The position numbers and the translations under genes were made by a program. 64,000 bases of DNA from a virus, in the IMG/VR virus record IMGVR_UViG_3300045988_079139, positions 4,378-68,377 of that record; one strand, 5' to 3'. Positions 12,927-59,902 of this stretch are shown here, piece after piece. Every line of letters begins with the position of its first letter. The stretch's first letter is position 1. Under the pieces are notes generated by a model. The model was not told the DNA's origin. It was given only the letters and a program-made list of their open reading frames with translations, and ran no database searches.

Positions 12927-12956
12927 AGATTAAGGAGAGAAAGGAGATACGAGATT

Positions 12957-38307: not shown

Positions 38308-40272
38308 GTGATTACTTCTCAAAATGTTCAAAATAGTGCCAAGTACTCTGCGTTATTTACTGATGCTTACAATCTGTTGAAGAAAGAAAATGATTTAACT
38401 CAGGGTGAATTAGATCTTGGCGGCTTTACTCGCTTAGAGGAATATTTTACTCGTATGCAAACTTTAAGCGCTAAGCATGTTGGCGAAGTTCAGAATATTG
38501 TAGATATCTTTGATGAGAAAAACAATGTTTATTATGCTAAATATGCGAAGTTCTTAATGCTTCCTCTTGATGAAACTCCTTTTGAAATTAATGCTAACTC
38601 TCGTCAGATTACTGTTCCTGATAATTTCAGAAAGTATGGCGTTAGCTTACATGGTGACCAGATTGCTGAAACTTTATTATTTAGAGTTGATAGATTCTTT
38701 GATTTCCAGGATTTGTTGAATACCACAATTCTAGTTCAGTGGACTAGACCCGGCAAAGAAGCAGAATCTGAGCGCGAAGGCGTTTCTTTAATTACTTTGG
38801 TTGACTATGAAACTGAGCCTGGTAAGATTTGGTTTGGTTGGCCATTAACCTCAGATATTACTAAAGAAGCTGGCGAATTAAAGTTCTCTGTTCGTTTCTT
38901 GCGCAAGAACTCCTCTTCTGGCAATATCTCTTATAGTTTAAATACTTTAACTACTCAAGTTACCATTAAGCCTGCTCTACATCCTAATTTAAATAATAAT
39001 TTAACTATGGATGAAGCTTCTATTTTATTTAGTGAAGCTATTGTAAACAGTCCTTCTACTGGTAGTACTCCTGCCGCTCGTCCTGTATATCTACAGAATT
39101 TGGCACAGAAGGCATGGTTGGTAGACGATGCATTGAAATTAGCTGTTACTGTTAAAACTGGCGATACTGGTGTATTAACTTATACTTGGTATAAGGCTGA
39201 TATTACTGGTGTTGACGCTGATGGTAAGTTTATTATTGCTGATGGTGTTTAGTTAGAAGGTAAGACTGAATTGCGTCGTACCACTGACGTTGTTCGTGCA
39301 GAAGATAAAGCTTATTATTTAGATAGCGAAGATGGCGCTGGTGTTCCTTATTTAGGAGAAATTAAAGCTGGCGTTGATGAAAACAATCAGCCTGTGGGTG
39401 TAAGCACTGACGGAGCCGCTGTCTATGAAAGATATTCTGTGTATGAAATGCCTGCCACTGGAGAAGTTTCTGGTCAGTATTGGGTTATTGCCCAGAATAG
39501 AGCTGGTACTTCCACTGAGCAGACTAAGAGTGTTTACTGTGAAATCCCTGGTCCTAAGACTTTGGTATTTACCGCAGATAAAGCTTTGGCTACTAATGTA
39601 TTTATCGCTGATGATGGTTCTGTAACATTACAGGCAGAGGCCACTCCTGATGATCCTGACCCAGCTCATACCACTCTAACTTATAAGTGGGAAAAGAAGA
39701 CTGCTATTGATGGTGAATATCAGGAAGTTAAAGTTGATGGCACTCCAGTATCCACCGGTAAGACTTTAGTTTTGGCTAAGGCTGGTGAAAATGAAGTGGC
39801 AGCTACTAAGCATATTGGATGGTATCGCGTTACTGCAAAATCTGTAGTAAATCGTGATGAAATGACTTGTGTAAGTGCTCACGATTGTAAGGTTACTGCT
39901 CATCCTACTTTGCCAACTGTCACTTTCCCAACTCAGGAAATTACTTTGGTTAAAGAACATGATGCTGATGATAATGGTGTATTCACTTTGAATATTGAAT
40001 TGGCCGACAAGGGTGGTTTATTACATAGTGAATATTATACTTACACCTGGTATCGTAGTATCACTGATAGCGATCCAGTTGAAGTTAGTGCTGATGATGC
40101 AGATATTATTACTGCTGCTGACATTCTAGCAGAGCATCGTAATAATACTTTACAGGTAAAATTGGCTCCAAACGATGAAGTTGAATTCTACTTCTGTGAA
40201 GTCCGCAATCATTTGAATGGAGAGGTTTCTGGTCCTGCTGTTACCAAGCTATTCAGAGTAAGTGCACAGTAA
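38308..40272 (+). CDS. Structural protein (654 aa, 1 junction TAG at 39250), paralogue of 40298
   Basis: GTG start after gaaaggaag. The 39271 fragment is co-frame, ending at TAA 40270-40272. Residues 60-200 align with the 40298 protein (F.VDRF.D..DL....I.VQ...). Confidence 0.5.
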
Positions 40273-40297: not shown

Positions 40298-40981
40298 ATG
40301 ATTACAACTGCTGAAGAGTATTACCGCGCTTTATTTAGAGTTCAAGATGATAATCCTCCAACGCTAGCCCTATTACCTCACGCAGAAACTACTTATAAAG
40401 TTGATTTAAATAAGAGAACTATTGAAACTCCTGAGTTTCTAAGTGTTGCTCGTGACCATAAAGCAGAAAATATCTACTTTGAAGTAGATAGATTCTGCGA
40501 TTATATGGACTTATCAACTTGTTGCTGCATTGTACAATATGAGGCTGGAGAAGGAGAAACTCGTAGAAGCGGTATTTATCCAGTACCTTTTTATGATATT
40601 ACAACACCAAATAATCGTAGAGAAATTGAGAATCAAGGACAGGATATTCCAGAAGGTGGAGAAACCACCGAAACAGATAATCCAGTTTTATATATTAAAG
40701 ATAAAATGTTAGTGCCTTGGTGCTTAGATGGTGCGGCAACCGCTTATCCCGGTCCTATCACCTATTCCCTACAGTTTTATCGTTTGAATATTGATGGTAC
40801 TAAATTCGTTTATAATATGAATACCACTCCAGTAACAAGTGAAATCCTTTATGGCATGGACGTTGTAAAAGAAAATTACAACGGTGCATTTGATATTGAG
40901 CCAGATGAATATCAAAAGATTTTGGCTCGTGTCGTTGCTTTAGAGGGAACATTTGATATTAAGTGGATGGATATGTTCTAA
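40298..40981 (+). CDS. Structural protein (227 aa), paralogue of the N-terminal region of 38308
   Basis: AAGGAGGG RBS, TAG-free, followed by a terminator. Confidence 0.6.
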   Translation: MITTAEEYYRALFRVQDDNPPTLALLPHAETTYKVDLNKRTIETPEFLSVARDHKAENIYFEVDRFCDYMDLSTCCCIVQYEAGEGETRRSGIYPVPFYDITTPNNRREIENQGQDIPEGGETTETDNPVLYIKDKMLVPWCLDGAATAYPGPITYSLQFYRLNIDGTKFVYNMNTTPVTSEILYGMDVVKENYNGAFDIEPDEYQKILARVVALEGTFDIKWMDMF

Positions 40982-40990
40982 TTTTTATAT

Positions 40991-41028
40991 GGGTGGAATG
41001 ATTTAATCGTTCCACCCATTTTTTTATT
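40991..41028 (+). terminator. Rho-independent terminator
   Basis: gggtggaatgatttaatcgttccaccc hairpin followed by atttttttatt. Confidence 0.8.
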
Positions 41029-41051: not shown

Positions 41052-41711
41052 TTGGCAGATTTAAAATTTTTAATGGGTATTGAGAAGACTAACACTGGCG
41101 ATTCTCGTTTACCTGCCGCAAATGTGGCTATCGTAAAAGGACAAGTATATTTTGCAGAAGATAAATCTAAAAATGGTTTTGCAAGAATTTACTATGATAC
41201 AGAAGATGGAAGACGCGTTACTGTCAATAGCTTATCATCAACCTATGACTCTAGTAATCATGAAATTGCTAGTTATTATGTTACTTTTCCAACCTTACAA
41301 CTGGATTACAGTAGTGGTAAATATGCTTTAATATTTAGTGATGGAAAAGGTTCAAAATCAACTTATAATTTATCAGATATTTATCCCAGTCAGTGGACTT
41401 GGAGCGGAGGTACGACCGCAGGTCCTACTGCTTCTATTAAGTTATTAAGAAATGGTTTAGATTATGGCAATGTCAGTGTTGCTGCGATTCCTACAGCTTC
41501 AACTTCAGCTTCTGGTATTATTACAACCGGAAGTCAGACTCTTGCTGGTGAAAAAACTTTTAATAATAAAATGACTGTTGGTACTGGTTCATCTTCTGGA
41601 ACCATTTTACAAGTCAGTGGTAATGCTAATATTACTTATAAATTAAGTTTCAATGATAAAGCTCATCTACAATATGACAATGCAGATGAATGTCTATATT
41701 TTACATTTTAA
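41052..41711 (+). CDS. Fibre N-terminal-module protein (219 aa)
   Basis: TTG start 6 nt after GGAGGG. It shares the N-terminal motif (KF..G.......L.....V.G.VYFAED....RIYYDTEDG) with 26568, 29448 and 31294. Confidence 0.55.
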   Translation: MADLKFLMGIEKTNTGDSRLPAANVAIVKGQVYFAEDKSKNGFARIYYDTEDGRRVTVNSLSSTYDSSNHEIASYYVTFPTLQLDYSSGKYALIFSDGKGSKSTYNLSDIYPSQWTWSGGTTAGPTASIKLLRNGLDYGNVSVAAIPTASTSASGIITTGSQTLAGEKTFNNKMTVGTGSSSGTILQVSGNANITYKLSFNDKAHLQYDNADECLYFTF

Positions 41712-41724
41712 GAGGTGAAAATTA

Positions 41725-44532
41725 ATGAGTTTACAAGTTTGGTTACCTCTTAATGGACATATAAAAAATTATGGCTTATCAGACGTAACAACCTCATTAA
41801 TTAATAATCCAACTATTGTTGCGTCTAATCGTGGAGAGTGCTATAATTTTAATCCTAGTAATGAAAATAAATAGGCAATTGAAGTAAGCATTCCCGATAT
41901 GCCTAGATGGATTCAAAATGAATTTTCAATCGCATTTTGGTTTTATCATCGAGAAGGTTCTGATAGAAGTGTTATTTTTGGCAATCATCAATATAATGGA
42001 AGCTATACTTTTAATATTGAAAAGCTTGCTAATAACCAATTAAGAGTATATATGTAGGCCAAACCAGATGCTTCTTTTTCTACTTGTACAATAGCCGCAG
42101 ACACATGGACTCATATTACCATTGTTAAAACATCGGATGAATTACGTATTTACAAAGATGGAGTTAAAGTAAGTACTCGCACACATTTATCTTCTGATTT
42201 ATGGCAAGCCGCTGATGGAGTAAAGTATTTATTAGGTAGAGACGGCCGCACAAACAATACTGCATTAAATGGTATGATAAGTGATTTCCGTATTTATGAC
42301 CATATATTATCTCAAAAGGAAATTAAAAATATATCGCAAGGTTTATTATTAAATTATTCTTTTGATGATTTATATATGACTGCTACAACTAATTTAGTGA
42401 ATAAAGCAGATGGAAGTTTTACAAAAAATGCTAGTTCTGTTTGGCATGCAGGATTAAGTTGTCCAAAAGCTTATGTCACTCCTGGAAAAACTTATACTTT
42501 CTCTTGTGAAATGCGTCATACTGGAACCTAGACTTATACAGCTTATTTTGATACGAATTGTACTGATGAGGATGGCGTATATAGTGGAAATGATGCAGCT
42601 ATGCAAAATATTAAATCCAACTCTGGTGCAACAATTCCAAAAGACGGAACATGGGTAAAAATTTGGGTTACAGTAACTATTAAACCGGACGCAGGAAAAC
42701 CATATATTCATCATACAATATGTCCACAGGTTACAGCAGAAGAAGTAACTTTTTATTATCGAAATGTACAATTGGAAGAAGGTCCTATGGCAACACCTTA
42801 TGTTGCTTATAATTCACCAAGAGAAAATTGCATTGTAGATAATTCTGGTATGGGAAGACATGGCAAATTAAATACAAGCAGTTGTTATGTTTCCACTGAT
42901 ACTCCTCTTGGAGAATACTCTTTACATTTAAATGGCTCTGATACTGGGGATAGAGCTTGTGTTATAGGCGATTTAAATTTGGATGATATTAAGACTTACA
43001 CCTTTGCAAGCTATATAAAAATTAATACTTGGGGAAAACAAACAAGTGGTTTGTTTAATGCAAATTATACTTCAAGTTCATCTCCTGGAGATTATACGGC
43101 AAGCCCTATTCATCATCGCGACTCTCATTTTGATATTGCTACGAAAGGTAATACGGTGGCTACAACAGGAGCAACATATCAAAGATTATCTTGTTCAACA
43201 TCAGATATTCCAGTAGGTTAGTGGAAGCATGTCGCAGTTACTTTTGATGGTAAGACAGCTACTTTATATATTGATGGAGTTAAGAAAAGAAGCGTATCAT
43301 TTAGCGCAGCAGTGACTTTAGCACCTTGCAAATATATCTTTTTATCATATTCCTCTGCCGGTGGTGCATAGAGAGTAACAAATGCTAATTGGTCTGATTT
43401 TAGAGTATATTCAACTTGCTTATCTGCTGATGATATTAAAAAATTAGCTTTAAATCATGTGGCAGTAGATAAAGATAATAACTTACATTGTTATGGTCTT
43501 GTAGAAGAAACTAATATTGAACACAATATATCAAAACAGAGTGTGGTTAATGTTGGGGTTAAAGAAGAAGTAAACATCTATCCAGGTTCACAATATAATG
43601 CGGCGTCTATGAATGTTACTTATAATTTTGCAACGGATATATTCAAGGATTATGGATTTAATTCTTGTACCAAATTTGCTGCTTCAAATACATCTACTTC
43701 TGCATTTATGGCTTATTCATATTTGTTACCAATTTCTTACTACACTCCAAATTCTACTTATAGCTTTGCATGTTATGCATATGTTTCACCTGATTGTAAT
43801 GCAAATTTGCGTATCAATTTGGAGCAAAGCACAGGTTGGGTTAAAAATTATTAGAATACAAAAAGCAATATTAATGATACAACAAAAGGACAAGTAATTA
43901 AAGTTACTGGAACTATTAAGGCCAATAGTAACGGAAAAATTTATATAATGTTCTATCCTAACCCGAATCAAGCAAATACTTTTACAACTGGATATTTCTT
44001 GATTGCTGGTTTAACCATAGTCCCTGGAGAAAATATTCCACATCCAAGAGTAGAAAGAATGAGTGGAAATTTAATTTCATCTATGTCTCCTGGCACAAAT
44101 ATGACAGCCAATGGAACTCATAGTTTAATTGGAGATTTTAGTAAAAATTCAGATACTTATGGTTGGTTCAATACTGTTGAACCATTAGAGTTCGATAGAA
44201 TGTATCGCCTAACTTTTAATGTATCTAATTTAACAGATGGTAGTATTTGGGGTTGGAGATTGTGGAATAATGCTAATTACGAATTAAAAGTAGATAGAAA
44301 TGGAAATTATTCTTATACTTTTATTGTAAAACGAAATAAACTTCCTGCGAATGTTAGTTTCCAAAGATTTTTGTGGGATGACGGTGGCCGCACAAATCCC
44401 ACAGGCACAGTTTATTTTAATAATTTTAAACTGGTAGAATGTATTGCTCAACCGTATCATGGAATTTTTGAAACTAATAAAGCAGCTATCCATCCTTCAT
44501 ATATTGAAATGAATAATATATATGAAGATTAA
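41725..44532 (+). CDS. LamG (concanavalin-A-like lectin) two-domain receptor-binding-type protein (935 aa, 7 TAG)
   Basis: RBS agaggtga. The 42274, 42601, 43459 and 43948 fragments are co-frame with only TAG between them. LamG signature motifs are ISDFRIYDHILSQKEI and SDFRVYSTCLSADDI. The N-terminus MSLQVWLPLNGH is paralogous to 47675. Confidence 0.6.
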
Positions 44533-44621
44533 GGGCAGTTTTAATTAAAAGTCCTAATTTAATTTTTAATTCTTATAGAAGGTAAAACTTTCTATAATTT
44601 AATCAAAGGAGAGATTCTATT

Positions 44622-44849
44622 ATGTTAAAGATTGAAAACAAGAATTTGAGTTTCAACGCAGTGAGCATGATCAACGATGAAGTCGTTGCTAGATTCACTT
44701 CCAACTATTATGGAGCTGGCGTCGATTTTAATTATAGTGTTGAGAATGCTGTGGCCCATTTGGCACATTAGGTCGAAGCAGACGCTGATTTTGATGCATT
44801 TAAGGGTCATGTAATGGACACTATTGGTGCAATGGCTACCATTGTCTAA
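44622..44849 (+). CDS. Small hypothetical protein (75 aa, 1 TAG)
   Basis: AAGGAGAG RBS, TAA at 44847, then a terminator. Confidence 0.4.
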
Positions 44850-44863
44850 TAAGAACCATATTA

Positions 44864-44900
44864 GGGGCGAGAGCTGATAAAGCTCTCGCCCTTATTTTTG
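44864..44900 (+). terminator. Rho-independent terminator
   Basis: ggggcgagagct-gataa-agctctcgccc hairpin followed by ttatttttg. Confidence 0.8.
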
Positions 44901-44981
44901 TTTCTCGGACAAATAAAATTAATTATATGAGTTTAATTTTTATACATATATAGAGAAATTTTTGAAAAGAGAGGTGTAAAA

Positions 44982-47663
44982 ATGGCTCAATTAAAAGATT
45001 TAATTGTAGCGGGAGCCTCAAGATTTCTAGGTAAAACTTATTTTGAAGACTCAGTTACATTTAATGACACCTTAATTTTAGCAAAATCGCAAGATTTATC
45101 TGGTATTGCTGATAACAGACCAGCTTTAATCGTAGGTGGATTACCATCAGAGTCTCATGTGGAGATAGATGCCAATGAAATCTAGGCTAAAAGCTCTGGC
45201 ACAGCGATTGCTTCATTATACATTAATAATGATGGTGGCTCAGTAATTTTAAGTGGTAATGTTACTACCGCTGCAGATGGCAATGATGTCACGGCCGCAG
45301 GTGGTGGAGCTTTACGTATTACTGGTGGTTTATCAACTACTAAAGCTTCCTACTTTGGTGGTGCAATTACTGCGGCAAGTACATTAGGAGTTAGCGGTAA
45401 AACAACTTTAAGCGGCGAAGCTTTATTAAAAGGTGTTACTAAAATTGAAAACACTTTAAATGTTACCAAAGCAGTTGATTTTGATAGCACTTTAAATGTT
45501 GATGGCAAATTAACATTAGGTGGCAATATCGCTTATCAAAATGGCTCATATAGTAATTATGATGTAATTAAGTTTCTCACTGGTGATGATAACGGAGCTG
45601 GTGTTGTAATCGGCGGTGGTGGAGTTGCAATTTTTGGTTCCGGTGAATCTGCTTCTAATTTAGCAACTGCCGCAAGCATAAGTGGCACAAGCGAAACTAC
45701 TTATATCACTTCTGATAATAATATTGAGTTTTATACTAATTGCCAAACTATTGGCGATAGAGTTGGTGTTATCCTAAATACTTCTCGATATTTTTATCCT
45801 AATGCTAATAATACCGGTAGTCTTGGTACTTCTGGCAACGTTTGGAATAGTCTATATGTAAATACTGCTAATATTAATGGAAATGCGACTGTTAAAGGAG
45901 CTTTAGTAGTTAATGGTACTACGACTTTAAAAGGAACATTAACTTTAGGTACATATGTAGATCAAGCAACAGTACCCTCCGATGGTGGTATTATTGTTAT
46001 GGATTTACGCAATGCCACTGTAACTCCAGATAGTTTTGGAGATAGAAGAGTTAATTTTTATTTTGACTAGATTACTGATGATTTTTATACAACTACAAGT
46101 GCAACAAGCCCATCTTCTGCCACTAAATGGATGGGTATATTGCATATGAAAGGTTGGAAAGATAGTACTTATGCCGCATGGGAATTAGCTGGTAATGCTG
46201 ATACTACAAGCGTTCAAGATACATTAAGATTTAGATAGGGCGTTGGTAATACTTGGGGAGCTTGGCAATCTGTTATTACTGATGCTAATATTAACCAGTA
46301 TATGGATGGCCGATATGTGAATGTCACTGGAGACTCAATGAGTGGACATTTATATATGACAGGATCTCATGCAAGCAGCAGTACAGCTAATACGTCCTAG
46401 ATTGTCATGGGAACTTCTTCTGCTCAACATTTTGCCTTAACCGCAAATGATAAAGCAGTTGTTTTTAACCCTAGTACAACAAGTACAGATAATCAAATTG
46501 TATTATATTTAAAAACTAATACTCAATCACTTTTCCCCAACGGTATTTCAGTTGGCGGAATTTTATCTACCTCTTCTGGAGCAGATGCTTCTGGTTCAAC
46601 TGGTTCAGGCGACTTAAGAGTAGCTGGCGGCGCAGGTATTGCTAAAAAATTATATGTTGGTTCTAATTTAAGTGTTGGTGGAACTGCCACTATAGCTTCT
46701 ACATTAGATGTGAATGGTGAAGCATATTTCGCTTAGAATATTACTTTTGACGGTGCAGCTAATAGAGATCAATGGATTAGTTTCTTGCACACTGGTTCTG
46801 AAACCGGTTATGATTGGCGCATTGGACATCAAGGAACTGGTTCAAGTGATGCTAACTATTTTGTTATTCAATCTAATTCTACAACTGGCACCTGGACCAA
46901 TGTTTTAAGATTGGGATTAACAAGTTTTGCCGCAGTTTTTGGTGGGTCTATTACTTCTGGAGGAAATGTTGTTCCAGGAACTACTAGTGCTTATACGCTA
47001 GGCACTTCTTCCAGTTATTGGAATAATTTATATACAAATGTTGCAAACGTAGGCAACGGAACAGATTCTTCCAATACTACCACTGGAGCTTTAATCGTTA
47101 ATGGTGGTGTTGGAATTAGTAAAAAATTATATGTTGGTACTAATTTAACAGTAAATGGTAACGCAACTCTTGGTGACGCAACCAGTGATACTCATAAAAT
47201 TAACGGCAACACTACATTCAATGGAATACTATATTTTGCAAATGGCACTACTTATTATATTAATGCTAGTGCAAGTGCTAAATTTTCAGGTTTAAATGTG
47301 GCTGGTAATGCAGCTGTTACTGGTACAATGAATATTGGCGGTAATACAACAATTGGCGATGCCACTTCTGATACTCATAAAGTAAATGGAAATATGACTC
47401 ATAATGGTCATATCTATTTAGCGAATGGTACAACTTATTATATCAATTCTTCTGCTACTGCAAATATTCTTGCATTAACAACTAATGGCGCAGTAAAAAT
47501 GAATGGTAATACAGCATCAAGCAATATGACTTCAGGTCAATTGGTTGTGGTTGGCGGTGTTGGTATAAGCGGTCAAGTTAATGCCAAATCGGTTCGACTT
47601 GACAATGCAGTAAGATTTGAGTATAATAGTACTGATAAATGTGTTGATGTTATATTTGATTAA
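44982..47663 (+). CDS. Tail fibre A (893 aa, 6 TAG) with internal beta-rich repeats
   Basis: The N-terminus MAQLKDLIVAGASRFLG is shared with 50167. The 46407 and 46785 fragments are co-frame. There are repeats GDATSDTHK(I/V)NGN and G.L.V.GG.GI.KKLYVG.NL.V. The segments DNNIEFYTNCQTIGDRVGVILNTSRYFYPNANNTGSLG and GDSMSGHLYM resemble tail-fibre sequence. Confidence 0.65.
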
Positions 47664-47674
47664 GGAGGACGCTT

Positions 47675-50146
47675 ATGAGTTTAATGGCTTGGTATCCTCT
47701 GGATGGTAATACTAGAAATCAAGGGGTTGGTAATCTAACCCCTAGTATTTCAGGTACTCTTACTTATGCAGCTGGAAAAATTGGGGCAAAAAGTCTAAGT
47801 GGTGGAGGATTAACTTGGACTGCCGATTAGACAGCTTCAGTTTTAAATAATAAAGAATTTTCTATTGCCTTTTGGATTAAACCAGTTGGAACTACTTCAG
47901 GTCCGATTTTTGGTAATACCGGCATGGGAGCATCAAACAATAGAAAATTTTGTATTTACGCTTATCCTACTGTTAATGACTTACATTGGAGCTGGATGAA
48001 TGATGCAGCGGAGGTTGTTTATGCAGGAGGGTCAATCAATGGCAGTTTACCCTCTAATAAATGGACTCATGTTTGTATCACATATAAAAATCCTCAAGGA
48101 TATGTATATATTAATGGAGTTTAGAAATCTTCATTTAGTGGAGAAAGTAAATCTTCATCTTTTAAATATGCAACAACAGTATTGCATAATAATACTAGTC
48201 GTTATATTAATGATTTGCGTATTTATAATCATGCCTTGTCTGTTAGAGAAGTCCAATAGGTAAGTCAAGGATTGATATTACACTTACCTCTTAAAGATTA
48301 GGATCTTGAGAGCACTACGAATTTGGCTCCATATCCAACGCCAGGAGCGGCTTATACGCCAGGTTGGGTAACAAATTTACATCCTGATGCAATTTCTGTA
48401 AGTAGTTGGTCTTCTGGATATAATGGCGGAGTTGGAACCCCACAAGCTGGTTATCATGCATATTGGAAAATGATGGATGGTATTCCGACGATGGTGTTTT
48501 AGCATTTAAATTCTCAATTAGGTCTAGGAAATCGTTGGCTAGGAATAAGCTGTGGAGATTTTCAAGGTAAAATTGGACCCTCAAAAACTTATACTATTTC
48601 TTTTAATGCAAAATCTAGCGTTGACGGAGTAGTGATATCTACAGGTTATTATTATCGAACAACAGGAAGCACTTCAAATAATTTTCATGATGGATGTCCA
48701 AGTACAGCCTTAACAACCTCATGGAAAAGATATAGTTTTACTTTTACAACTTTAAATACTTTAGATACTTCTGTTAATGCCTCTATGTATATTTATGGAC
48801 ATAATGGTTCTGTTAATGGCATTGCCTATGTTCGTAATATTCAAGTTGAGCTAAAAGATCATGCGACTTCTTATACACCAACTACTAGAACTGCTAGCAG
48901 TGTTATGGATTGTTCTGGTTATTAGCACCATGGCACAATGGTTGGAACGGTAGTACCAAAAAATGATAGCGCTCGATATGATACTTGTATTTACCAAGGT
49001 GATGGCGTAAATAATTATCTAAAGAGTGGAGCAATTACAATGCCAACTGATAGTGTTACTATGAGTTGTTGGTTTAAAAGTTCAACCACAGGATATAACG
49101 GTTATCACATTCCAATGGCAGTAAATTCTAGTTCTTATGAACTAAGTATTGATTCATCCGGCCATTTTAGAAATGGCTTTGTAATTGGTGGAACTCGTTA
49201 GGTATTAACCACTTCACATACTTCAATTCTTGACGGCAAATGGCATATGATTACTGCTACATATGATGGTGCAACTATTAGACGCTACTTAGACGGTAAA
49301 GAATTAACATCATATGCTACTTCTGCAACTGGAACTTTATCTGGAGTTACTTCTGAGTTGCTTGTAGGTAGTTATGGTAGTGGAGGCTATGGTAATAAAA
49401 ATGCTTATATGAGTGATATTCGTATTTATGCTACGGCTTTAAGTGCGGCCGCAATTAAAACTTTATATGAGTCTAGAGCATCTCTAAATTCCACAGGTAC
49501 TTTAATGACTTATGAATTTATTGAAGATGGTTCAGCAAATATTAAAATGACCAGTGAGGGCTTAATTCGTGCAGGAGTAGTAAGCGAAACACAAACTGCT
49601 TTTGGTATGCCTATAAAGGTTTTAAGTGATGGAAGTGCTTGGGCACGAATTCACTGGATTGATGTTACTGGAGTAAATTCATGGTTTGCTAATGCGACAG
49701 AAGTGGATGAATGTATAGATAAATCTAATCGATTTAGTCGTATGGGTTCAGTTGAAAAATTCATTGGATCTGATGGATATTACGAATTTATGTTAACCTA
49801 TCCTCGATTATCTAAAACAAACTTTAACCGCTGGAAGCAGACAAGCTCTCCAAAAGCAAGTACAGTTACTGGTTTTACACCTATTACGACAGCTTGGTCT
49901 GCTCATAATGGTGGTATTAGAAAACACGGAAGCTCTTGTTTATATAATTGTGATACTGGTTCAACATGGTTTGCTCCAATAGGCCAATATGGAAAATGGA
50001 CTGAAACTCAATATATACCTGCGGCTGACGGAAGTTCTTAGACTGAAACTGAATTATGGGTAAGAATTGATACCTTACCTTCTTTAAATAAAATTAGTAT
50101 GTTTGATAATAAATTTATTCAAGCATTGAATATACATGAAATATGA
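47675..50146 (+). CDS. LamG two-domain receptor-binding-type protein 2 (823 aa, about 8 TAG)
   Basis: AGGAGG RBS. The N-terminus MSLMAWYPLDGN is paralogous to 41725. The 47924, 48632, 48938 and 49247 fragments are co-frame, ending at TGA 50144. LamG motifs are INDLRIYNHALSVREV and MSDIRIYATALSAAAIKTLYESRAS. Confidence 0.6.
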
Positions 50147-50166
50147 GAGAAAGGAGCTGAAATTAA

Positions 50167-53100
50167 ATGGCACAACTAAATGATTTACTGGTATTGGGTA
50201 AATCTAATTTATTGGGCGATACTAGTATTTTTGGAGCCTTTAATATTAATGGTAATGTTGCTATCGACGGCACTTTAACTGTTGAAGATGCTACTTCATT
50301 AAAGAGTTCCTTGACAGTTGCTGGATCTTCTACGATTGGCGGAGCCACCACAATTGGTGGAGCTACTACAATTGGTGGCGTCTTAACCGCGTAGGATAAT
50401 ATTAAAGTTTCAAGTAATAAAACAATTATTCAAGCTCAAAGTTCTGGTAGTAACTACACTACAGTTATTAGATGGGATTGGGCGGATAAAGGTTCATTTA
50501 GCTACTATCCGCAAATTGGTCATCATAGTAATGGAGACACTACTGGCGCTATTGTTTTATTGCCATATGCCACTAATGCCAAGCCCTGGGATGCAAATGA
50601 TGGTTTATATATATCTGCGTCTAGATTAAGATGGAATAATTTAATTGCGGCTGATAATAGTAGAAATTTTTATCCTACTCAAAATGGCACTGGTTCCATT
50701 GGTACTTCAAGCTACTATTGGAATAATGGTTATTTAAATAACTTAACTATTAAAACAGCTTTAACTTTAAATGGAACAACATATTTAAATGGTAACTTAG
50801 TTTGGAAGCCAAGTGTTAATATTACTTGTACACCAACTGCTGCGAATCAAGAATTCTCAATTGACGTTGGTAGCAGTTCTTTTACAGGGTCTTATTTCCA
50901 TATTTGGTCTGCAGTTAAATCTACTTCGATTTTAAGTTGTTATCCAGATGATTTATCTGTGAAGATGGGCGGCGCTGTCACTATCGCAGGAGCCATCACA
51001 GCTAATAGTACAGCTTTAATTAAAGGCTCAACTGAAATTCAAAATAATGTTAAAATTACTAATGGTAACTTAACTATTCATAGAGACTCAACAAAGGCTG
51101 CAAATACACCAGCTAAAATTATTTTTTCTAACAAACAAACCGATGGTAATATTACAACAAATTCTGCCTGTATTGCTGCTTATGATGATCATGATGCCTC
51201 AAGTTATGGTCAAAATTTAGTTATTTAGGGTTGTTCTAATGTTGTTGTAGGTGCAGGTGAAAGTGCTACCAGTTTTTATGAAGCAGTTTTAAAAGATAGT
51301 TCATCAGAAGGTTTATATCTAACTTCTGATGGTAGTATTTATTTCTATCCTAAATGTGACACTGTTGCTAATAGAGTTGGAGTAATTCTTGATACTTCAA
51401 GACAGTTTTATCCCGACTCAAATAACACTGGTTCTTTAGGTGTAAGTTCTTACCGCTGGGCAAATGCATACATTGGTAATTTAAATGCTTCAGGAACTGG
51501 TACAATTTCTGGCAATACTTCTATTGGAGGCACATTAAGTGTAAGTAGCACTTTAACAGTTGGTAGTACCACATTATTAAAAAATACCTTAACTGTTCAA
51601 GGCAATATTTATATTAATCAAACTGCAGGTACAGGTACTGGCCTAGCTTTGTACGGAACAAGTGCACCTGCAACATATGGAGTTTATTTTGCTCAAACTG
51701 CTAATTTTAGTAAGCATGGCGACGTTCAAGGAGATTGGGCAACTTACTTTGGAATGAATGCCGTTGGTACAAGAGGTTGGATTTTCCGTCCTGGTACAAC
51801 AAATGTGGCAAGTATTTCCGCAAATGGTGTAGCATCTTTTTCTGCTATCGGTGATGGTGTTGCTTATTTAGCATTCCCCAAGGGCGGCACTCTAACTATT
51901 GGCTCTAGTGGCCAAAAAGGATATTTAACTATTGTAATGCCAGCAGGATTTAACTCCACAATGGTTAAATTCAAGGTATCTGTTTATAATTATTCAACCG
52001 GCACTTCTGTTGACTATATTATCGGAGGTTATTGTTATTCTTCTGATAATAAATGGTATAATCCAACTGCATATTGTATTGGTCCTAGAGGTAGCGGATT
52101 AGCAAACTTAACTGTTAATTACGGTATGTCTGGAAGTAATCCAGCAATTCAGATTGGTGCGGCAGACACAACTTGGGAATATCCAAATATCGCAATTTCT
52201 GATGTTTATTTAGGTCATAGCCGTAATTATTCTAATTGGTCTAAGTCATGGACCGTAAGTATTACCACAACTGCTATTACTTCTATCACACAAACTATAT
52301 CCAATACTTATATGGCCAACTTTAGCGGTACAAATAATAAAGTTGCTAAATTCTCTAATAGTGGTCTTAATATTACTAATAGTAATATTACTGATGATGG
52401 CTCCACTGTTACTATTGGTTCTAAACTTGTTGTTTAGGGTAATGGTAGTTCATATAATGAAGGTATTCGTATTTTACCAGCTTCAAATGGTTGGTCAAAT
52501 ATCTTCTTCTCCGCTGACTCCAGCGTTTAGGGAACTCATGATGGTGGATGGCTGATCGGACGACGCGGTGCCGTAGGTTCAACCGCAGGAGCTATTGGTG
52601 ACTTCACTATTGAAGAACAAGATTCTTCTGGCGTTAACCTCACTATTCACAAAGATGGTAATGGCGCAACGTTAATGGGTAGTTTACGCATTAATAAACC
52701 GATCATTTATAGCACAGAAGCTTCCGGTACTCGTATTCTGTATGGATCTACTCGTAATTCAGGTATGAAATATGACTATAGTGGCAATGAAAGTTTCATG
52801 ATTTCTGCTGGTACTTATGCATCTGCATCAATTCTACTATTGACCGGTGGACAATTAAATATGAATGATAGTAATGGTCAATGGAATGCTAGTACAACTG
52901 TTCCAGCAATGTCTCTGCGTAAGTCAGGTGTTGCAGTTAATTATAACTTAACTTCTGACCCAACTCATAATTTTTATGTTAAGGGTACTTCAAAATTTGA
53001 TGGTGTTGTTTTTGGTTATAATTATATTAATTCAAGTAACGCTGCAGCTTTTATGTGGGACAAGAATGGAACTAACTACACAGGCGTTGGTTCTTGTGGC

Positions 53101-54189
53101 GTAGCTGATACAATTCTTTTTGCTCCTTGTAGCGCAGACGGAGCTTGGGTAAGTAGTTATGAACAGATTTGGAGATTCCAAGGATCTATTGAATTCCCTC
53201 AAAACTCTGCTCGCGTAAGAGGAAATACTGCTACTGATTATACTCCTGTTTACATAAGTGGTGAGAAAAACACTTATGGCGGTATCGCTTTTTAGAATGG
53301 ATTGCATGTCATGTCTAGTGCAGATCACCATGGTTTTTGGGACGGTACATGGATCCTTTATCGAAACACTTCTCATGGAGCTATTAGTATTGGTACCGCT
53401 CAAACCACTGCTAACGGATATGCAATTACTCTTGCGGGAAGTACTTATATTAATGGTAATACATCCATTAATGGAACTTTAACTATGAGCAACGCTATTC
53501 AACTACAAGTTGATGGTGGTAACTGGTATAATCCTATTAAGAATTTAACACATAGTGGACTATATTATGATGCGTCAAGTTCTAATACTTCTACCTACTG
53601 GAGTTTAATTGCTTTAAAATTCCCTAACCAAACTTACTCTTTAGGTGGCGAGCGCTCCGGAAATACCTTCGGTATTTATAGTTACAATAACAGTAGAACA
53701 GATAACGGATACGATGGAGCTCTTTACGTTCATGGTGGCAACCACTACTTCTATTGTACTACTAGACTATATGGCGCTGTATGGAATGACTATGCGGAAT
53801 TCCGTACTCAAGAGCAAGAAGTAGCCCCAGGCTATTGTGTCGCTTCTAGAGATAATGGCAAAATTCATAAAACCCATAAGAGACTATAGGCTTGTGACGG
53901 TATTGTCTCTGATACTTATGGTTTCTCCATTGGTGAAAATGAAGAAAATAAAACGCCTCTTGCTGTTGCAGGTCGTGTACTTGCATACTGCGAAGGAGAT
54001 AAAAACGATTATCGTGCTGGTGATACTGTTTGCGCAAGCGAAAATGGTAAAGTCTGCAAGATGACTCGTGAAGAAATTCAAATGTGGCCTGACCGAATTG
54101 TTGGTACAGTTTCTGAAATTCCTGATTATGAAATTTGGGGAACTGGAAAGGTTAAAGTTAATGGTCGTATTTGGATTAAAGTAAAATAA
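50167..54189 (+). CDS. Tail fibre B (1,340 aa, about 8 TAG), paralogous to fibre A at the N-terminus and at an internal segment
   Basis: RBS gagagaaaggag. The N-terminus is MAQLNDLLVLGKSNLLG. The 50560, 51649, 52675 and 53302 fragments are co-frame. The segment DGSIYFYPKCDTVANRVGVILDTSRQFYPDSNNTGSLG matches fibre A. A TAG at 53887 precedes the last 100 aa, and the gene ends at TAA 54187. Confidence 0.65.
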
Positions 54190-54192
54190 TAT

Positions 54193-54232
54193 AAACCCAG
54201 AGAACAAAATGTTCTCTGGGTTATTTTTTTTA
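54193..54232 (+). terminator. Rho-independent terminator after fibre B
   Basis: aaacccagagaac-aaaat-gttctctgggtt hairpin followed by a T9 run. Confidence 0.8.
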
Positions 54233-55840: not shown

Positions 55841-56263
55841 ATGGAAATTATTGCTAATGCTGTTCAAACTGTTGCGGCAAATCAAAATGTTTATTTCACA
55901 GATTCCGTAACTTCTGGAAATTATTCAATTGAGCATCGTGACGGAAGTGGTTTAGTTACTCTTCGTGGTGTTACTGCTACTCAATGTCGTGCTCGTTTTA
56001 GAATTCATTTCGGAGCTAATATTGCCATTCCTACTGGAGGAACCGTAGAAGCAATTTCACTTGCAATTGCACTTGATGGTGAAGCAATCCCCTCAACAAT
56101 TATGACTATCACCCCAGCCGCAGTTGAAAATTATTTTAATGTAAGTGCATCAATTTTTATAGATATTCCAAAAGGTTGTTGCTCTCATGTAAGCATTCAG
56201 AATATTTCAACTTAGCCTGTATTAGTGCAAAATGCTAATTTAATTGCGGAGCGCTCTGCATAA
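55841..56263 (+). CDS. Hypothetical beta-rich protein (140 aa, 1 TAG)
   Basis: GGAGG RBS, TAG at 56213, TAA at 56261. A faint resemblance to the BclA C-terminal / C1q-like fold is speculative. Confidence 0.45.
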
Positions 56264-56275
56264 AGGAGGAGTAAT

Positions 56276-56701
56276 ATGAGTCACATAAAATTGATGTGGA
56301 TGGAGGAGCAGCTGATTGCAGAAGCTGAAAAACAATTTGAATGTTTGGAAAAAGTCTGCACAAAAGAACTTGGCGAAGTTATTGATATGATAAAAGATTT
56401 GAAAGAAGCTATTTATTATGAAACAGTGACTAAAGCCATGGAAGCTGGTGACTCTTATAAAACAGAAAAAAGCGACCATCTTCATGGAGAAGACGGCCGC
56501 CAAGAAAGTCGTAGCTATAGATATATAGAAGCACGAGAAATGAAAAAAGATAAAGCAACACAGTTGCGCGAATTAGAAAAGTATATTCAGGAAATGAGCT
56601 AGGAAATCATTGATATGATTAGTGATGCTTCAGTTGAAGAGAAAGCTTATTTGGAAAAGAAACTTACTGCTCTTGGAGTAAAAATTGGACAAATGAAATA
56701 A
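56276..56701 (+). CDS. Hypothetical coiled-coil protein (141 aa, 1 TAG)
   Basis: AAGGAGG RBS, TAG at 56600, TAA at 56699. Confidence 0.45.
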
Positions 56702-56751
56702 AAAAAATAAAGGCGAGATAATCATCGTGATTATCTCGCCTTATTTTTTTT
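56698..56751. terminator. Bidirectional rho-independent terminator between the converging late (+) and replication (-) operons
   Basis: aggcgagataat / attatctcgcct hairpin flanked by A9 on the left and T9 on the right. Confidence 0.8.
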
Positions 56752-56754
56752 GCT

Positions 56755-57225
56755 TTAAACAAGTGGGTCATTCTCAGTCTTTAATGGTAAAGCAACTGCT
56801 TTATTATAAAATGCTTCAGCTTGACCATTACCACCTAAACCTTTGTATAGCTTATAGAATTCGATTAATTGTTCCAGTTGTCCTTCAGTAATGTATCCTT
56901 GATGTAAAAAACCTTTACATAACTGAATTAGACGGAAACGATAGGACGCAACAATTAAGTTCATATGAGATTTTTCCATATTTTCATTATCACGGCAGTA
57001 TTTTCTTAAATCTTCTAATTCTTGAAATACTGGTTCTAATTCAATATCAATCTTATTCTCAATCTTTTCATCCAATTTCTATTCTGCTAAGGTGGCAGCA
57101 TTTTTCTCAGCTGTTTCTTTCTCTCTCATAATTTGAGAATTTTTCCATTTTGCATAGCCAATAACAGCAGCGCTAATTAGACCGAACAAAATTTCTGTTC
57201 CCCACTCTGCTAAAAGAGCTTCCAT
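56755..57225 (-). CDS. Membrane-anchored hypothetical protein (156 aa, 1 TAG between the TM segment and the soluble domain)
   Basis: The ATG at 57225 (minus strand) has GGGGG upstream. The N-terminus MEALLAEWGTEILFGLISAAVIGYAKW is a TM helix. An in-frame TAG at 57076-57078 joins it to the ORF-track fragment 56755-57075, whose start is TTG. Confidence 0.45.
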
Positions 57226-57290
57226 AAGAAAATCATCCCCCTTTCAACTTCTCTACTGATGTTAAGAAAAGTGAAAGAGGGATTAATAAG

Positions 57291-57776
57291 TTAAGACCAG
57301 TCGAATACTTCGACCTTGTTATTTACATAATGAGCACCAATACAAATAGCATCACATTCATCTTGAGTTGGTTTTACGCCATAGGTTTTTTCAACCCAGG
57401 CCTGTGCCGCTTTCTTTTGGGCTGGACGATCCTTGCCCTTGATTCCAAGAGTGGATTTCCATACCGTAGAAAGAACTGCGGTACGAGGCATTTTTAAAGT
57501 TACAAATAATTCATATAAAACGCCAAACACTTCTGCCAATGCTTTAAATGTAGCTACATTATTTGCCACATTACCTTGTAATTGGATATCTTCAAAAACC
57601 ACTTCATCAATATCATATTCATCAATGAGCGAGTTTACTTTACTTCTGATAAAATGTAGTCTATCTCCAACATCAGAATGGTCTGCAGTAAACTTGCCAA
57701 AAGTGACAAGCTTACCATCATTGAATACAGCCCATCCGCTTGTGCGGCTTGCTTGATCTAATGCTAGAACTCGCAT
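57291..57776 (-). CDS. ruvC: RuvC-like Holliday junction resolvase (161 aa)
   Basis: N-terminal motif MRVLALDQASRTSGWAVF with a RuvC/YqgF-like acidic catalytic pattern. TAG-free. Confidence 0.55.
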   Translation of the reverse strand: MRVLALDQASRTSGWAVFNDGKLVTFGKFTADHSDVGDRLHFIRSKVNSLIDEYDIDEVVFEDIQLQGNVANNVATFKALAEVFGVLYELFVTLKMPRTAVLSTVWKSTLGIKGKDRPAQKKAAQAWVEKTYGVKPTQDECDAICIGAHYVNNKVEVFDWS

Positions 57777-58315
57777 TACTTAGAAGTAGAGCCAAATCCG
57801 CCAGTGCGTTCTCCACCTGCGACGTCATTTTCAGTTACGCCGTAGGGAAGAATAATTGCCTGACCAATGGCCTCTCCCTTTTTGATTTGAATATTGAATG
57901 GAGATAGATTATAAATCTGGAAGAAGATTTCTCCTTCATTGTCTGGATTGTTGTAATAATCAGCATCAATAATGCCAATACCATTACCCATCATTAACCA
58001 ATACTTTAAAGGAGAAGAGCTACGAACACTCAACTGCAACCAAGTACCTGGGTCAAGCTTGCACTTCATACCAGTAGAAACAAGAGTTGGCTTGAAGCCA
58101 GTTTCCTTTGTGAATTTAGCCATTAGCTCCATAGTGACGAACTCATCATTAGCTACGGGCCACAACTCTTTAGCTTCTGCAACCATTTGCCACAAGGAAG
58201 GAATAATATAATCCTCTGCAGCAACCATATCATAACCTGCGGACTGTGCAGTCTTTCTGACCGGCATAGCAATATCCGCATCTGTATATTTAGAAACTTT
58301 TTCAAAAATAGCCAT
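57776..58315 (-). CDS. dut: dUTP diphosphatase (trimeric dUTPase, 179 aa)
   Basis: Motifs SVRSSS, GIIDADY...GE and the C-terminal GGERTGGFGSTSK. TAG-free. Confidence 0.85.
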   Translation of the reverse strand: MAIFEKVSKYTDADIAMPVRKTAQSAGYDMVAAEDYIIPSLWQMVAEAKELWPVANDEFVTMELMAKFTKETGFKPTLVSTGMKCKLDPGTWLQLSVRSSSPLKYWLMMGNGIGIIDADYYNNPDNEGEIFFQIYNLSPFNIQIKKGEAIGQAIILPYGVTENDVAGGERTGGFGSTSK

Positions 58316-58320
58316 CTTAA

Positions 58321-59331: not shown

Positions 59332-59369
59332 ATCAAATCTCTCCTTTATCTCTTGATATATCTATTATA

Positions 59370-59852: not shown

Positions 59853-59902
59853 TGGAATTTACTCCTTTCTTATTAGCGTAGCTAACTTGTAGTTAACTAC
59901 GA

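Follow-up and report, generated by a model that had tools for sequence, protein, structure and literature searches.

Within the window, a stretch of viral DNA of 64,000 nucleotides that was analysed as a whole, two large LamG proteins alternate with two putative tail fibres. An earlier note took this arrangement for a [LamG + fibre] cassette that was duplicated in tandem, after which the distal domains diverged and the host range widened. The question raised by the locus is whether such a cassette is indeed its building block, or whether the genes recur in another unit, with other consequences for how fibres and LamG proteins are joined.

Genetic code and gene content

Under translation table 11, with no readthrough of TAG, the region 41725-54189 breaks up into ORFs of 60-290 aa. 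The in-frame stops of LamG1, FibA, LamG2, and FibB are exclusively TAG (6, 5, 8, and 6, respectively; 25 in all), and decoding TAG as glutamine yields four intact genes. Alignments with orthologues place CAA or CAG opposite TAG at 26 of 41 informative sites. The TAG-only stops and the glutamine codons of relatives agree in pointing to genetic code 15 (TAG=Gln) as the predicted code of the locus. Provided that TAG is read through, the four gene starts and the end coordinate given in the earlier note are all exact. TAG-recoded clades of gut phages are known, and the present code-15 phage fits them (10.1101/2021.08.26.457843). The locus would belong to the genome of a gut phage of about 200 kb, whose late genes decode TAG as glutamine. 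No tRNA of any kind, and hence no suppressor tRNA(CUA), is found within the 64-kb window, and a suppressor may be encoded elsewhere in the ~200-kb genome. In TAG-recoded phages, late-gene loci are missed by standard-code ORF calling. The features of the locus are as follows.

40989..41019, + strand: intrinsic-terminator-like hairpin, 14-bp stem and T run, closing the upstream unit
41073..41711, + strand: g41073, 212 aa, putative short stalk or adaptor, no TAG
41673-41708, + strand: codons of the g41073 C-terminal motif, protein end ...HLQYDNADECLYFTF
41725..44532, + strand: LamG1, 935 aa, 6 TAG, C-terminus ...NNIYED
44622..44849, + strand: small ORF, 75 aa, one TAG, good RBS, phrog_2566
44862..44894, + strand: strong intrinsic-terminator-like hairpin, 14 pairs (8 GC) and T run, between the LamG1 unit and FibA
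44982..47663, + strand: FibA, 893 aa, 5 TAG, N-terminus MAQLKDLIVAG...
45354..45953, + strand: FibA block common with FibB, aa 125-324
47599..47627, + strand: 12/12 sigma-70 consensus (TTGACA-17-TATAAT) within the FibA 3' end, a consensus match only
47622-47660, + strand: codons of the FibA C-terminal motif, protein end ...RFEYNSTDKCVDVIFD
47675..50146, + strand: LamG2, 823 aa, 8 TAG, C-terminus ...LNIHEI
50167..54189, + strand: FibB, 1340 aa, 6 TAG, N-terminus MAQLNDLLVLG..., putative terminal fibre
50965..51567, + strand: FibB block common with FibA, aa 267-467
53773..54186, + strand: FibB C-terminal domain, ~138 aa, GAVWNDYAEF...GRIWIKVK, phi29 gp12 C-terminal autochaperone fold
54194..54222, + strand: bidirectional terminator-like hairpin, ending the FibA-LamG2-FibB unit

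The terminators at 40989-41019, 44862-44894, and 54194-54222 delimit two units, g41073-LamG1-small ORF and FibA-LamG2-FibB. The small ORF is conserved 3' of the first LamG gene in the related loci L002, L004, L006, and L009. The sigma-70 consensus match in FibA sits 48 nt 5' of LamG2.

Two pairs of paralogues

The proposed kinship within each pair is borne out. LamG1 and LamG2 are paralogues with 22% identity over 695 aa (E 3e-18; Smith-Waterman score 315 against 53+/-8 for shuffles, z=33), and FibA and FibB share 36% over 213 aa (125-324 vs 267-467; E 5e-28, z=21). The common N-termini described previously are also real, since the first 40 residues alone reach z 13.6 for the LamG pair and 9.5 for the fibre pair; FibA 1-74 matches FibB 1-95 at E 4e-5. 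The distal parts, which had been described as divergent, are not detectably related (z 1.5 for the LamG proteins from 620/640 to the end, z 3.3 for the fibres). Low complexity had been named as the alternative to a real alignment; in shuffle tests, LamG-versus-fibre cross pairs reach only z 0.1-2.1, and the within-pair similarity is therefore not compositional.

The LamG proteins

LamG1 and LamG2 have an identical Pfam layout (Laminin_G_3, CBM_4_9, Laminin_G_3) and differ in their C-terminal regions, which comprise ~320 aa in LamG1 and a ~200-aa beta domain in LamG2. Laminin_G_3 (PF13385), present as two domains in each protein, scores 132.5 bits in LamG1 and 117.2 bits in LamG2 (gathering cut-off 27.6; Pfam E-values 2e-38 and 9e-34), while CBM_4_9 (PF02018) scores 31.4 and 33.3 bits (gathering cut-off 25.9). 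Bacillus phage proteins whose annotation reads receptor-binding protein or tail fibre also contain the CBM_4_9 domain. An AlphaFold model of the 94%-identical protein P0001 (pLDDT 90.3) consists of four beta-sandwich domains and displays the jelly roll of Laminin_G_3-type lectins. Compared with the PDB by Foldseek, this model retrieves lectin or receptor-binding jelly rolls, namely neurexin/laminin LG, neurotoxin Hc, and trans-sialidase lectin domains (E 1e-8 to 5e-11); compared with BFVD, it retrieves phage LamG, minor-tail, or putative-adhesin proteins. These similarities suggest that the LamG proteins bind carbohydrate, presumably host-surface glycans. No glycan-binding residues were identified in them, and LamG and CBM folds can also be purely structural.

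The LamG N-terminus is near-invariant and always lies at residue 1, including in homologues of 1000-1350 aa. Natural LamG-fibre fusions of the 'Rosetta stone' kind were not found among the homologues, the long ones gaining internal domains only. The literature searched held nothing relevant on LamG or Laminin_G_3 tail-fibre proteins.

The fibres

Sequence searches say little about the fibrous proteins. FibA and FibB find nothing meaningful among PDB sequences, and Pfam (E<=5) returns nothing useful for FibA, FibB, g41073, or the small ORF, apart from a faint BppL_N match in g41073. PHROGs gives weak matches to tail or structural families. Together with composition and a Gp34_trimer match on the fibre orthologue of L002, these matches suggest that FibA and FibB are trimeric fibres. 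At the nucleotide level, megablast of 41-55 kb finds no match among deposited phages, and tblastn searches with FibA and the LamG1 core find none either.

Profile searches with the C-terminal domain of FibB were uninformative, so that a fold search was needed to identify it; this reveals similarity to a phi29 gp12 fragment (PDB 3gqh). In phi29, the chaperone is carried by a beta-helix spike of the pre-neck appendage, whereas FibB is a long fibre. Peptidase_G2 (PF11962) is absent from FibB, in which no Pfam family is found at E<=5. A PAAR match of the domain profile among PDB sequences is due to chance only.

A C-terminal motif coupled to LamG genes

The proteins g41073 (...QYDNADECLYFTF) and FibA (...EYNSTDKCVDVIFD) end in a common motif, with the consensus Y-N-S-T-D-(E/K)-(S/C)-(L/I)-D-F-(V/I)-F at the extreme C-terminus, which FibB lacks. 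The motif family was defined in this analysis and comprises 54-60 unique examples. Across ~86 deduplicated loci, a LamG N-terminus comes next after 67 of the 72 ORFs that end in the motif (Fisher p ~2e-70). A motif-ending gene precedes every LamG gene in the window and in L001, L002, L004, L006, L008, L009, and L010, and the fibres of these loci that have no downstream LamG gene also have no motif. Orthologues of g41073 in L002, L004, and L006 (52-87% identity) and its analogues in L009 and L001 all carry the motif at their end, with a LamG gene next. In 38 of 56 cases, the LamG gene starts 9-20 nt downstream, and a Shine-Dalgarno sequence lies in the spacer; the gaps from stop to LamG start in the window are 13 nt (g41073 to LamG1) and 11 nt (FibA to LamG2).

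The coupling spans three genetic codes and different phage families, including cultured T4-like Vibrio phages, while about a fifth of viral LamG loci have no recognisable upstream motif. Conserved motif positions are written in synonymous codons, with both Ser codon families in use, which indicates that selection acts on the protein. A conserved nucleotide element at the junction, considered as another explanation, is ruled out by this codon usage. Motif and gp12-like chaperone domain are mutually exclusive fibre C-termini. The recurring unit is a motif-ending protein followed by a LamG protein, i.e., g41073 with LamG1 and FibA with LamG2, and FibB stands alone. No earlier description of this junction rule was found in the literature searched.

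Comparison with known systems

The Vibrio phages D479 and 6E35.1a (Schizotequatrovirus, Straboviridae; KVP40-like) encode a homologous LamG core (31% over 657 aa to LamG2, E 7e-74). The fibre directly upstream ends in ...YNSSTKSIDFKFV, with LamG following within about 10 nt, and a motif HMM built without these two phages scores their fibre tails at E 2e-7 and 4e-5. As with FibA and FibB, there is a second, distal fibre, which stands alone and has the same N-terminus as the motif-bearing one. The Vibrio systems differ in several respects: their LamG proteins have an ILEI domain like T4 gp35, whereas the window's do not; their terminal fibres carry Peptidase_S74 chaperones and FibB a gp12-type one; their fibre N-termini are gp36-like, unlike the window's; and they use the standard genetic code, with one LamG gene per locus. 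At E<=1, ILEI (PF15711) is found neither in the C-terminal regions of LamG1 and LamG2 nor in those of four relatives.

The T4 long tail fibre (gp34-gp35-gp36-gp37) offers a parallel in gene arrangement, in that genes for trimeric fibres are interspersed with a gene for a non-fibrous connector, as would be the case here. Gene 35 begins 8 nt beyond gene 34, close to the gaps of the LamG genes, and T4 fibre N-termini are of the MA.(L/I)K style found in the window. The tail of gp34 (...VRIVPDPVNKTVKFEWVE) is strand-turn-strand and part of a three-hairpin cap; the three beta-hairpins at the trimer end are believed to touch gp35, the knee protein, which is a monomer (PMC5537660). LamG1 and LamG2 resemble gp35 in being encoded directly after a fibre with a putative C-terminal hairpin cap. 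T4 differs in having a single knee with no lectin-type domains, gp35 being 372 aa long. Membership of the gp34 tail in the motif family was considered and rejected; the tail is not among the motif HMM matches up to E 3, and the resemblance is qualitative only. Homology of the LamG family to gp35 was likewise discarded (hhalign probability 0.4% with a 73-sequence LamG alignment), and BLASTP with gp35 gives no match below E 0.1.

Phages of the T2, T6, and S16 type carry an adhesin gene, gp38, directly downstream of the fibre gene gp37, and the adhesin binds the C-terminal end of gp37 and sets receptor specificity. The window is similar in placing a separate putative adhesin gene directly after a fibre gene, but the adhesins of the gp38 type are small proteins whose fold is unrelated; the searches revealed nothing that resembles them in sequence or domain content, and the fibre C-terminal motif is different. 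The branched tailspike complexes of CBA120 and G7C combine several receptor-binding proteins (RBPs) per locus with conserved N-terminal attachment and exchangeable distal modules, as the window would do as well. These systems rely on tailspike N-terminal adaptor domains, to which no search returned homology.

A model of the apparatus and its alternatives

We consider it somewhat probable that the locus encodes a modular apparatus of tail fibres and adhesins, with lectin-like LamG proteins docked on a fibre C-terminal hairpin cap, where they may be either tips or gp35-like knees. The region 41,073-54,222 would be a distal tail-fibre and adhesin locus, in which fibrous, presumably trimeric, proteins alternate with LamG proteins. 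Its functional unit would consist of two genes, a stalk of any length and a LamG protein started 9-20 nt further on. The last ~13 residues of the stalk would form the strand-turn-strand motif, and three such C-terminal hairpins would cap the stalk trimer and provide the socket for the LamG protein, which in turn would supply carbohydrate binding to host-surface glycans. Physical docking is suggested by gene adjacency, conserved termini, and the analogy with T4. Two pairs would thus be present, the short stalk g41073 with LamG1 and the long fibre FibA with LamG2. FibB would be a self-sufficient terminal fibre that has a FibA-type N-terminal anchor and in which a phi29-gp12-type intramolecular chaperone replaces the motif.

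Another arrangement of the same parts is a serial jointed fibre (g41073, LamG1, FibA, LamG2, FibB) with the LamG proteins as enlarged gp35-type knees; we regard it as rather unlikely. Each LamG protein would bind the preceding cap as well as the MAQL... N-terminus of the next fibre, and LamG copy number would set the number of segments. The order stalk, LamG, MA.L-type fibre is indeed found in the window, L002, L004, L006, L009 (three times), L010, and the Vibrio phages, and resembles T4 34-35-36-37. An MA.L-type fibre follows LamG in 38 of 91 cases, as opposed to 19 of 381 (5%) after other genes (p 2e-17), yet this adjacency is facultative and more than half of LamG genes have no such fibre next. 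Pfam ILEI is common to T4 gp35 and both Vibrio LamG proteins (E 1e-8, 6e-10, 6e-4), and the gene after the Vibrio LamG encodes a Phage_T4_gp36 domain; however, the LamG proteins of the window show neither ILEI nor any detectable similarity to gp35. A recombinant, L002, retains the LamG2 C-terminal domain together with the FibB N-terminus, which is in favour of this arrangement. Against a chain stand direct LamG tandems with no fibre in between (four in L041; also L052, L072, and L023) and the strong terminator between the LamG1 unit and FibA. Moreover, the motif-bearing and distal fibres of the Vibrio phages have the same gp36-like N-terminus (E 1e-10), which suggests that they are alternatives for a single site and not links of a chain. 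An improbable further reading, which concerns fibres without a C-terminal chaperone domain of their own, reduces the motif to a foldon-like trimerisation cap, with LamG merely co-expressed and attached elsewhere (e.g., at the baseplate), or acting as a non-structural assembly factor. The mutual exclusion of motif and gp12-like domain is consistent with it, and gp34 hairpins likewise cap a trimer. A generic cap is nevertheless not expected to be tied to one gene family so consistently across genetic codes and phage families, and a study using virion proteomics annotates the Vibrio LamG homologues as structural proteins of the virion.

The alternation of two paralogous pairs with unrelated distal parts, and the existence of relatives with one, two, or three units, would also be accounted for by the tandem duplication proposed in the earlier note, in which a [LamG + fibre] cassette was copied within the lineage and diverged distally to widen host range. 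Paralogy and distal divergence stand, whereas a recent or lineage-specific event does not, and we give this history little credence. LamG1 and LamG2 are not each other's nearest relatives, contrary to what a copying event in this lineage would leave: they fall into separate clades with 100% bootstrap support, each has nearer relatives in other phages, and a Vibrio phage protein (29%) is nearer to LamG2 than LamG1 is. Their identity of about 23%, within a range of 22-36% for the paralogues as a whole, compares with 54-97% for LamG orthologues in syntenic relatives, and all that remains of DNA similarity between the copies is a single 120-nt stretch of 72.5% identity (FibA about 45701-45818). 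The proposed cassette register is also not supported, because the terminators split the locus differently and, with the motif rule, bring in g41073. Copy number varies among related phages, as had been asked of them, a locus having 1, 2, 3, or 4 LamG genes; L006, a relative with a single copy, seems to have undergone secondary loss or replacement, as it keeps a 55-aa remnant of the FibB N-terminus. Judged from these comparisons, the paralogous copies are ancient, and independent acquisition of LamG1 and LamG2 through recombination is an equally possible origin. The duplication itself is ordinary, since mosaic receptor-binding loci with several copies are a standard feature of phage genomes.

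A broader proposal, which we hold only tentatively, is that motif hairpin and LamG protein form a portable plug-and-socket joint, used by phages as different as T4-like marine Vibrio phages and gut jumbo phages with recoded stop codons. The LamG proteins would be lectin-bearing relatives of the gp35 knee, with the ILEI-containing Vibrio proteins as the evolutionary bridge. If so, phages would add or swap pairs, so that a fibre would bear between one and four lectin 'knees' or branches, and there would be a general, sequence-recognisable rule for joining fibre segments, which would offer an engineering handle. The junction rule itself predicts the accessory protein of each fibre. Should the motif be a docking socket, it would help to annotate the RBP complexes of uncultured phages, provide a modular point for adhesin swaps, and yield a testable hypothesis for the gp34-gp35 junction of T4-type fibres.

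Mosaicism of the distal half

Diversity of the apparatus would arise from cassette exchange, chiefly within 46.7-54.2 kb, and from whole pairs being gained or lost. This interval, an exchange hotspot, covers the distal part of FibA, the LamG2 core, and the FibB tip. Sequence comparison supports the distal half of the region as a recombination hotspot of the kind linked to host-range change. The host-range expansion suggested for the locus is plausible, and the locus may have a role in host range. In Schizotequatroviruses, the homologous region is a hotspot at which long-tail-fibre RBPs recombine (PMC12028318). Breakpoints lie at 47,728 for L002 and at 46,671 for L006, and in L002, a close relative, the LamG2 core (47729-49626) is replaced while the last ~125 aa are kept.

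Genetic code and gene models

Under the standard bacterial code, the region 41725-54189 is a scatter of short ORFs. In the four frames proposed by the earlier note (LamG1, FibA, LamG2 and FibB), TAG is the only interruption, occurring 6, 5, 8 and 6 times, respectively. Over the whole window, ORFs of 100 codons or more add up to 18,465 codons with TAG as a stop and to 26,780 with TAG as sense, and the second reading yields an orderly plus-strand late-gene array. Because CAA or CAG lies opposite TAG at 26 of the 41 sites where orthologues align reliably and carry a sense codon, the alignments indicate that TAG encodes glutamine (code 15) in this phage. Such a reassignment is known from the late genes of large gut phages (10.1101/2021.08.26.457843). 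ARAGORN found no tRNA genes in the 64-kb window. The gene coordinates of the earlier note coincide exactly with the models obtained when TAG is read as glutamine (TAG=Q).

Features of the LamG and fibre locus
40989-41019, strong terminator-like hairpin
41073-41711, + strand, g41073, stalk or adaptor gene, 212 aa
41725-44532, + strand, LamG1, 935 aa (TAG=Q)
44622-44849, + strand, small ORF, 75 aa (TAG=Q)
44862-44894, strong terminator-like hairpin
44982-47663, + strand, fibre FibA, 893 aa (TAG=Q)
47675-50146, + strand, LamG2, 823 aa (TAG=Q)
50167-54189, + strand, fibre FibB, 1340 aa (TAG=Q)
54194-54222, strong terminator-like hairpin

The three hairpins delimit two units, g41073-LamG1-small ORF and FibA-LamG2-FibB, which replace the register of repeated LamG-plus-fibre cassettes first proposed. 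The 75-aa ORF, directly followed by a strong terminator, belongs to phrog_2566 (unknown function), is kept after the first LamG gene in the related contigs L002, L004, L006 and L009 (39-100% identity) and may encode an assembly factor. Inside the 3′ end of FibA, at 47599-47627, a perfect 12/12 sigma-70 consensus (TTGACA, 17 nt, TATAAT) lies 48 nt before the LamG2 start and, as a consensus match only, might provide LamG2-FibB with its own promoter. Upstream of the fibre locus, the adjacent genes 38455-40272 (605 aa) and 40298-40981 (227 aa) are paralogous in their N-terminal domain, with 26% identity over 159 aa (E 5e-11). The two genes, kept in this place in L002, L004, L006, L009 and L010, could encode baseplate or attachment proteins.

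Across positions 1-57000, TAG is a sense (Gln) codon in plus-strand late and structural genes; it occurs 33 times in 3459-12836 and 13 times in 12957-19142, for instance. Most replication and nucleotide-metabolism genes of the minus strand at 57291-63968 (RuvC-like, dUTPase-like, NrdD, DNA polymerase III alpha fragment) are free of TAG, and the sign of the GC skew flips at ~56000-58000, where the coding strand passes from plus (late genes) to minus (replication genes). Read-through also yields three giant ORFs, 3459-12836 (3125 aa), 12957-19142 (2061 aa) and 31294-37983 (2229 aa); orthologues of the last have only faint LRR_5 or CotH matches.

Coupling of a C-terminal motif to a downstream LamG gene

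The part of the locus worth pursuing is a junction rule, whereby a gene ending in the motif Y-N-S-T-D-(E/K)-(S/C)-(L/I)-D-F-(V/I)-F is followed by a LamG gene. The g41073 protein ends in ...HLQYDNADECLYFTF and LamG1 starts 13 nt past its stop codon, FibA ends in ...RFEYNSTDKCVDVIFD and LamG2 starts 11 nt past its stop codon, while FibB has neither the motif nor a LamG gene downstream. The rule is kept in every relative fetched by exact-protein look-up (L002, L004, L006, L008, L009, L010 and L001), including L001, a distant contig that uses the standard code, and holds for upstream proteins that differ in length (205-1068 aa) and in N-terminus. It is also found in cultured Straboviridae: the tail fibre proteins of Vibrio phages D479 and 6E35.1a end in ...SVSYNSSTKSIDFKFV and ...SIEYNSSTNSIDFIFA, respectively, and directly downstream of each lies the gene for a LamG homologue (1057 or 1094 aa).

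Scanning IMG/VR with a profile added 79 LamG loci. In ~86 deduplicated loci, 72 of the ORFs of 100 aa or more end in the strict motif, and a LamG-type N-terminus lies within ~420 nt downstream of 67 of them (Fisher p ~2e-70, a value that overstates independence because the loci are phylogenetically related); of the other five, at least one precedes a genuine LamG gene that the regular expression missed. A motif HMM built from 54 unique tails, with the Vibrio and T4 sequences left out, picks the two Vibrio tails out of 1,823 background tails (E 2e-7 and 4e-5). Invariant residues are written with either synonymous codon, and serine with codons of the TCN and AGY families alike, which places the constraint on the protein. 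Stop and start codon are 9-20 nt apart at 38 of 56 junctions (mode 12), and a Shine-Dalgarno sequence (GGAGG or a near-variant, for instance) usually lies between them. On the LamG side, M1, L3, W6 and P8 are each conserved in at least 90% of N-termini, which always lie at residue 1, even in homologues of 1000-1350 aa; nearly all homologues end in ...x-E-(I/D/F), and none of them is a LamG-fibre fusion.

In L041 (IMGVR_UViG_3300031993_000059, ~10001-17500), a single 1953-aa fibre ending in ...EYDSTLQCTNFVFY is followed by an uninterrupted row of four LamG genes that encode the core only (558-623 aa); L052, L072 and L023 have LamG-LamG tandems of this kind too.

Domains of the LamG and fibre proteins

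LamG1 and LamG2 share the layout Laminin_G_3, CBM_4_9, Laminin_G_3, followed by differing C-terminal regions. The confident AlphaFold model of P0001, a homologue 94% identical to LamG2 (73 homologues as input; pLDDT 90.3, pTM 0.79), comprises four beta-sandwich domains. Its PDB neighbours are lectin-type or receptor-binding jelly rolls, namely neurexin and laminin LG, clostridial neurotoxin Hc, the trans-sialidase lectin domain and CBM22. Among predicted viral structures, neighbours include LamG proteins of KVP40-like Vibrio phages, T4-like cyanophage structural proteins, actinophage minor tail proteins and one 'putative adhesin'. Searched by itself, the CBM domain matches Bacillus phage proteins whose annotation reads receptor-binding protein or tail fibre. 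FibA and FibB match no Pfam or PDB sequence; their PHROG matches are weak and fall in tail-fibre or structural families, and the L002 orthologue of FibB has a Gp34_trimer match.

In L001 (1258-4361), two separate, overlapping genes encode the LamG core (620 aa) and a 413-aa C-terminal domain that has weak F5/8 type C and CBM_4_9 matches and ends in ...KDFYEI, so that the LamG proteins of the window correspond to a two-module fusion. The phi29-gp12-like chaperone domain at the FibB C-terminus (53773-54186) forms a large family with P0170-P0289 (520 matches, 60-75% identity, no Pfam model); three JGI records label it 'fructose-1,6-bisphosphatase/inositol monophosphatase family enzyme', probably a misannotation.

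Paralogy and exchange of modules

The pairing of the genes proposed in the earlier note extends well beyond low-complexity composition. LamG1 is 22% identical to LamG2 over ~695 residues (E 3e-18), and FibA is 36% identical to FibB over a 213-residue block (E 5e-28) and aligns with it at the N-terminus as well. Smith-Waterman z-scores against 200 shuffles are 33 and 21 for these pairs versus 0.1-2.1 for the four LamG-fibre cross pairs. The distal parts score 1.5 (LamG pair) and 3.3 (fibre pair) and are not detectably related, in line with the proposed distal divergence. The tandem duplication itself is less secure: the two halves share a single 120-nt stretch of DNA similarity (72.5% identity), the copies are ancient, and duplication and independent acquisition are equally possible origins.

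Gene order is the same in relatives on ~200-kb contigs, with identities of 54-97% between orthologues versus 22-36% between paralogues. The phylogeny of the shared module does not make LamG1 and LamG2 nearest relatives: neighbour joining of the LamG cores unites the LamG1 orthologues in one clade (100% support) and pairs LamG2 with L004_b (100%), then with L008 and L009_a. The slot-2 LamG protein of L002 groups with L009_c, although L002 is otherwise near-identical. LamG2 is 29% identical to the D479 protein versus 23% to LamG1.

At the DNA level, L002 stays collinear with the window at 87% identity as far as 47,728, 54 nt into LamG2; the LamG2 core is unrelated, similarity returns from 49,627 (LamG2 C-terminal domain and FibB N-terminus), and the FibB tip (53,166-54,060) is again unrelated. 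L006 splits from the window at 46,671 and rejoins it at 54,218; it lacks LamG2 and encodes one 1408-aa fibre made of FibA residues 1-574 (91%) and a different distal part. What is left of a FibB-type N-terminus in L006, a contig without LamG2 and FibB, is a 55-aa ORF (14243-14410; 54% identity to FibB 1-41), which suggests that the second module was secondarily lost or replaced. Copy number does vary among related phages, from one LamG gene per ~20-kb locus (65 loci) to two (13), three (3) and four (1), and L009 carries three stalk-LamG pairs. In Schizotequatroviruses, the homologous 195-205 kb region, which encodes long-tail-fibre RBPs, is one of two main recombination hotspots (PMC12028318). 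The locus is a modular multi-RBP tail-fibre locus, and the duplication itself is ordinary.

Known systems and possible function

By logic, the closest characterised system is the T4 gp34-gp35-gp36-gp37 fibre; by homology, the nearest counterpart is an uncharacterised LamG 'virion structural protein' that KVP40-like phages encode in their long-tail-fibre hotspot. The T4 gp34 trimer bears three somewhat flexible terminal beta-hairpins that 'most likely' touch gp35 and/or gp36, and gp35 is a monomeric knee-cap (PMC5537660). Four points lead us to infer that the LamG protein would dock on the upstream fibre's hairpin cap: motif and LamG gene are nearly always coupled, the spacing between the two genes is tight and suits co-translation, two free termini are conserved at the protein level, and T4 offers a precedent. 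The lectin-type domains, together with the allelic replacement concentrated in the LamG2 core and the FibB tip, suggest that the apparatus recognises a receptor (glycan).

We lean, with slightly better than even confidence, towards LamG being a docked lectin adhesin that optionally serves as a branching node. A pure serial knee, in which LamG also connects to the next fibre, ranks second and appears rather improbable. An MA.L-type fibre does follow LamG in 38 of 91 cases versus 19 of 381 elsewhere (p 2e-17), yet more than half of LamG genes have no such fibre next, direct LamG tandem arrays exist and the LamG1 unit ends in a terminator. An ILEI domain common to T4 gp35 and the Vibrio LamG proteins favours a connector, but the LamG proteins of the window show neither this domain nor gp35 similarity. 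The gp36-like gene after the Vibrio LamG also favours a connector; the gp36-like N-terminus common to the Vibrio stalk and distal fibre speaks against one.

Membership of the window's LamG proteins in the gp35 family failed both sequence and domain tests, and the match of the T4 gp34 tail to the motif is not significant. A 569-aa protein (29448-31157) ends in ...DATNDAVKVSFVWDSF, which is closer to the gp34 tail (...DPVNKTVKFEWVE) than the LamG-associated motif is; it matches the motif HMM weakly (E 0.45), and the next gene is the 2229-aa giant, not LamG.
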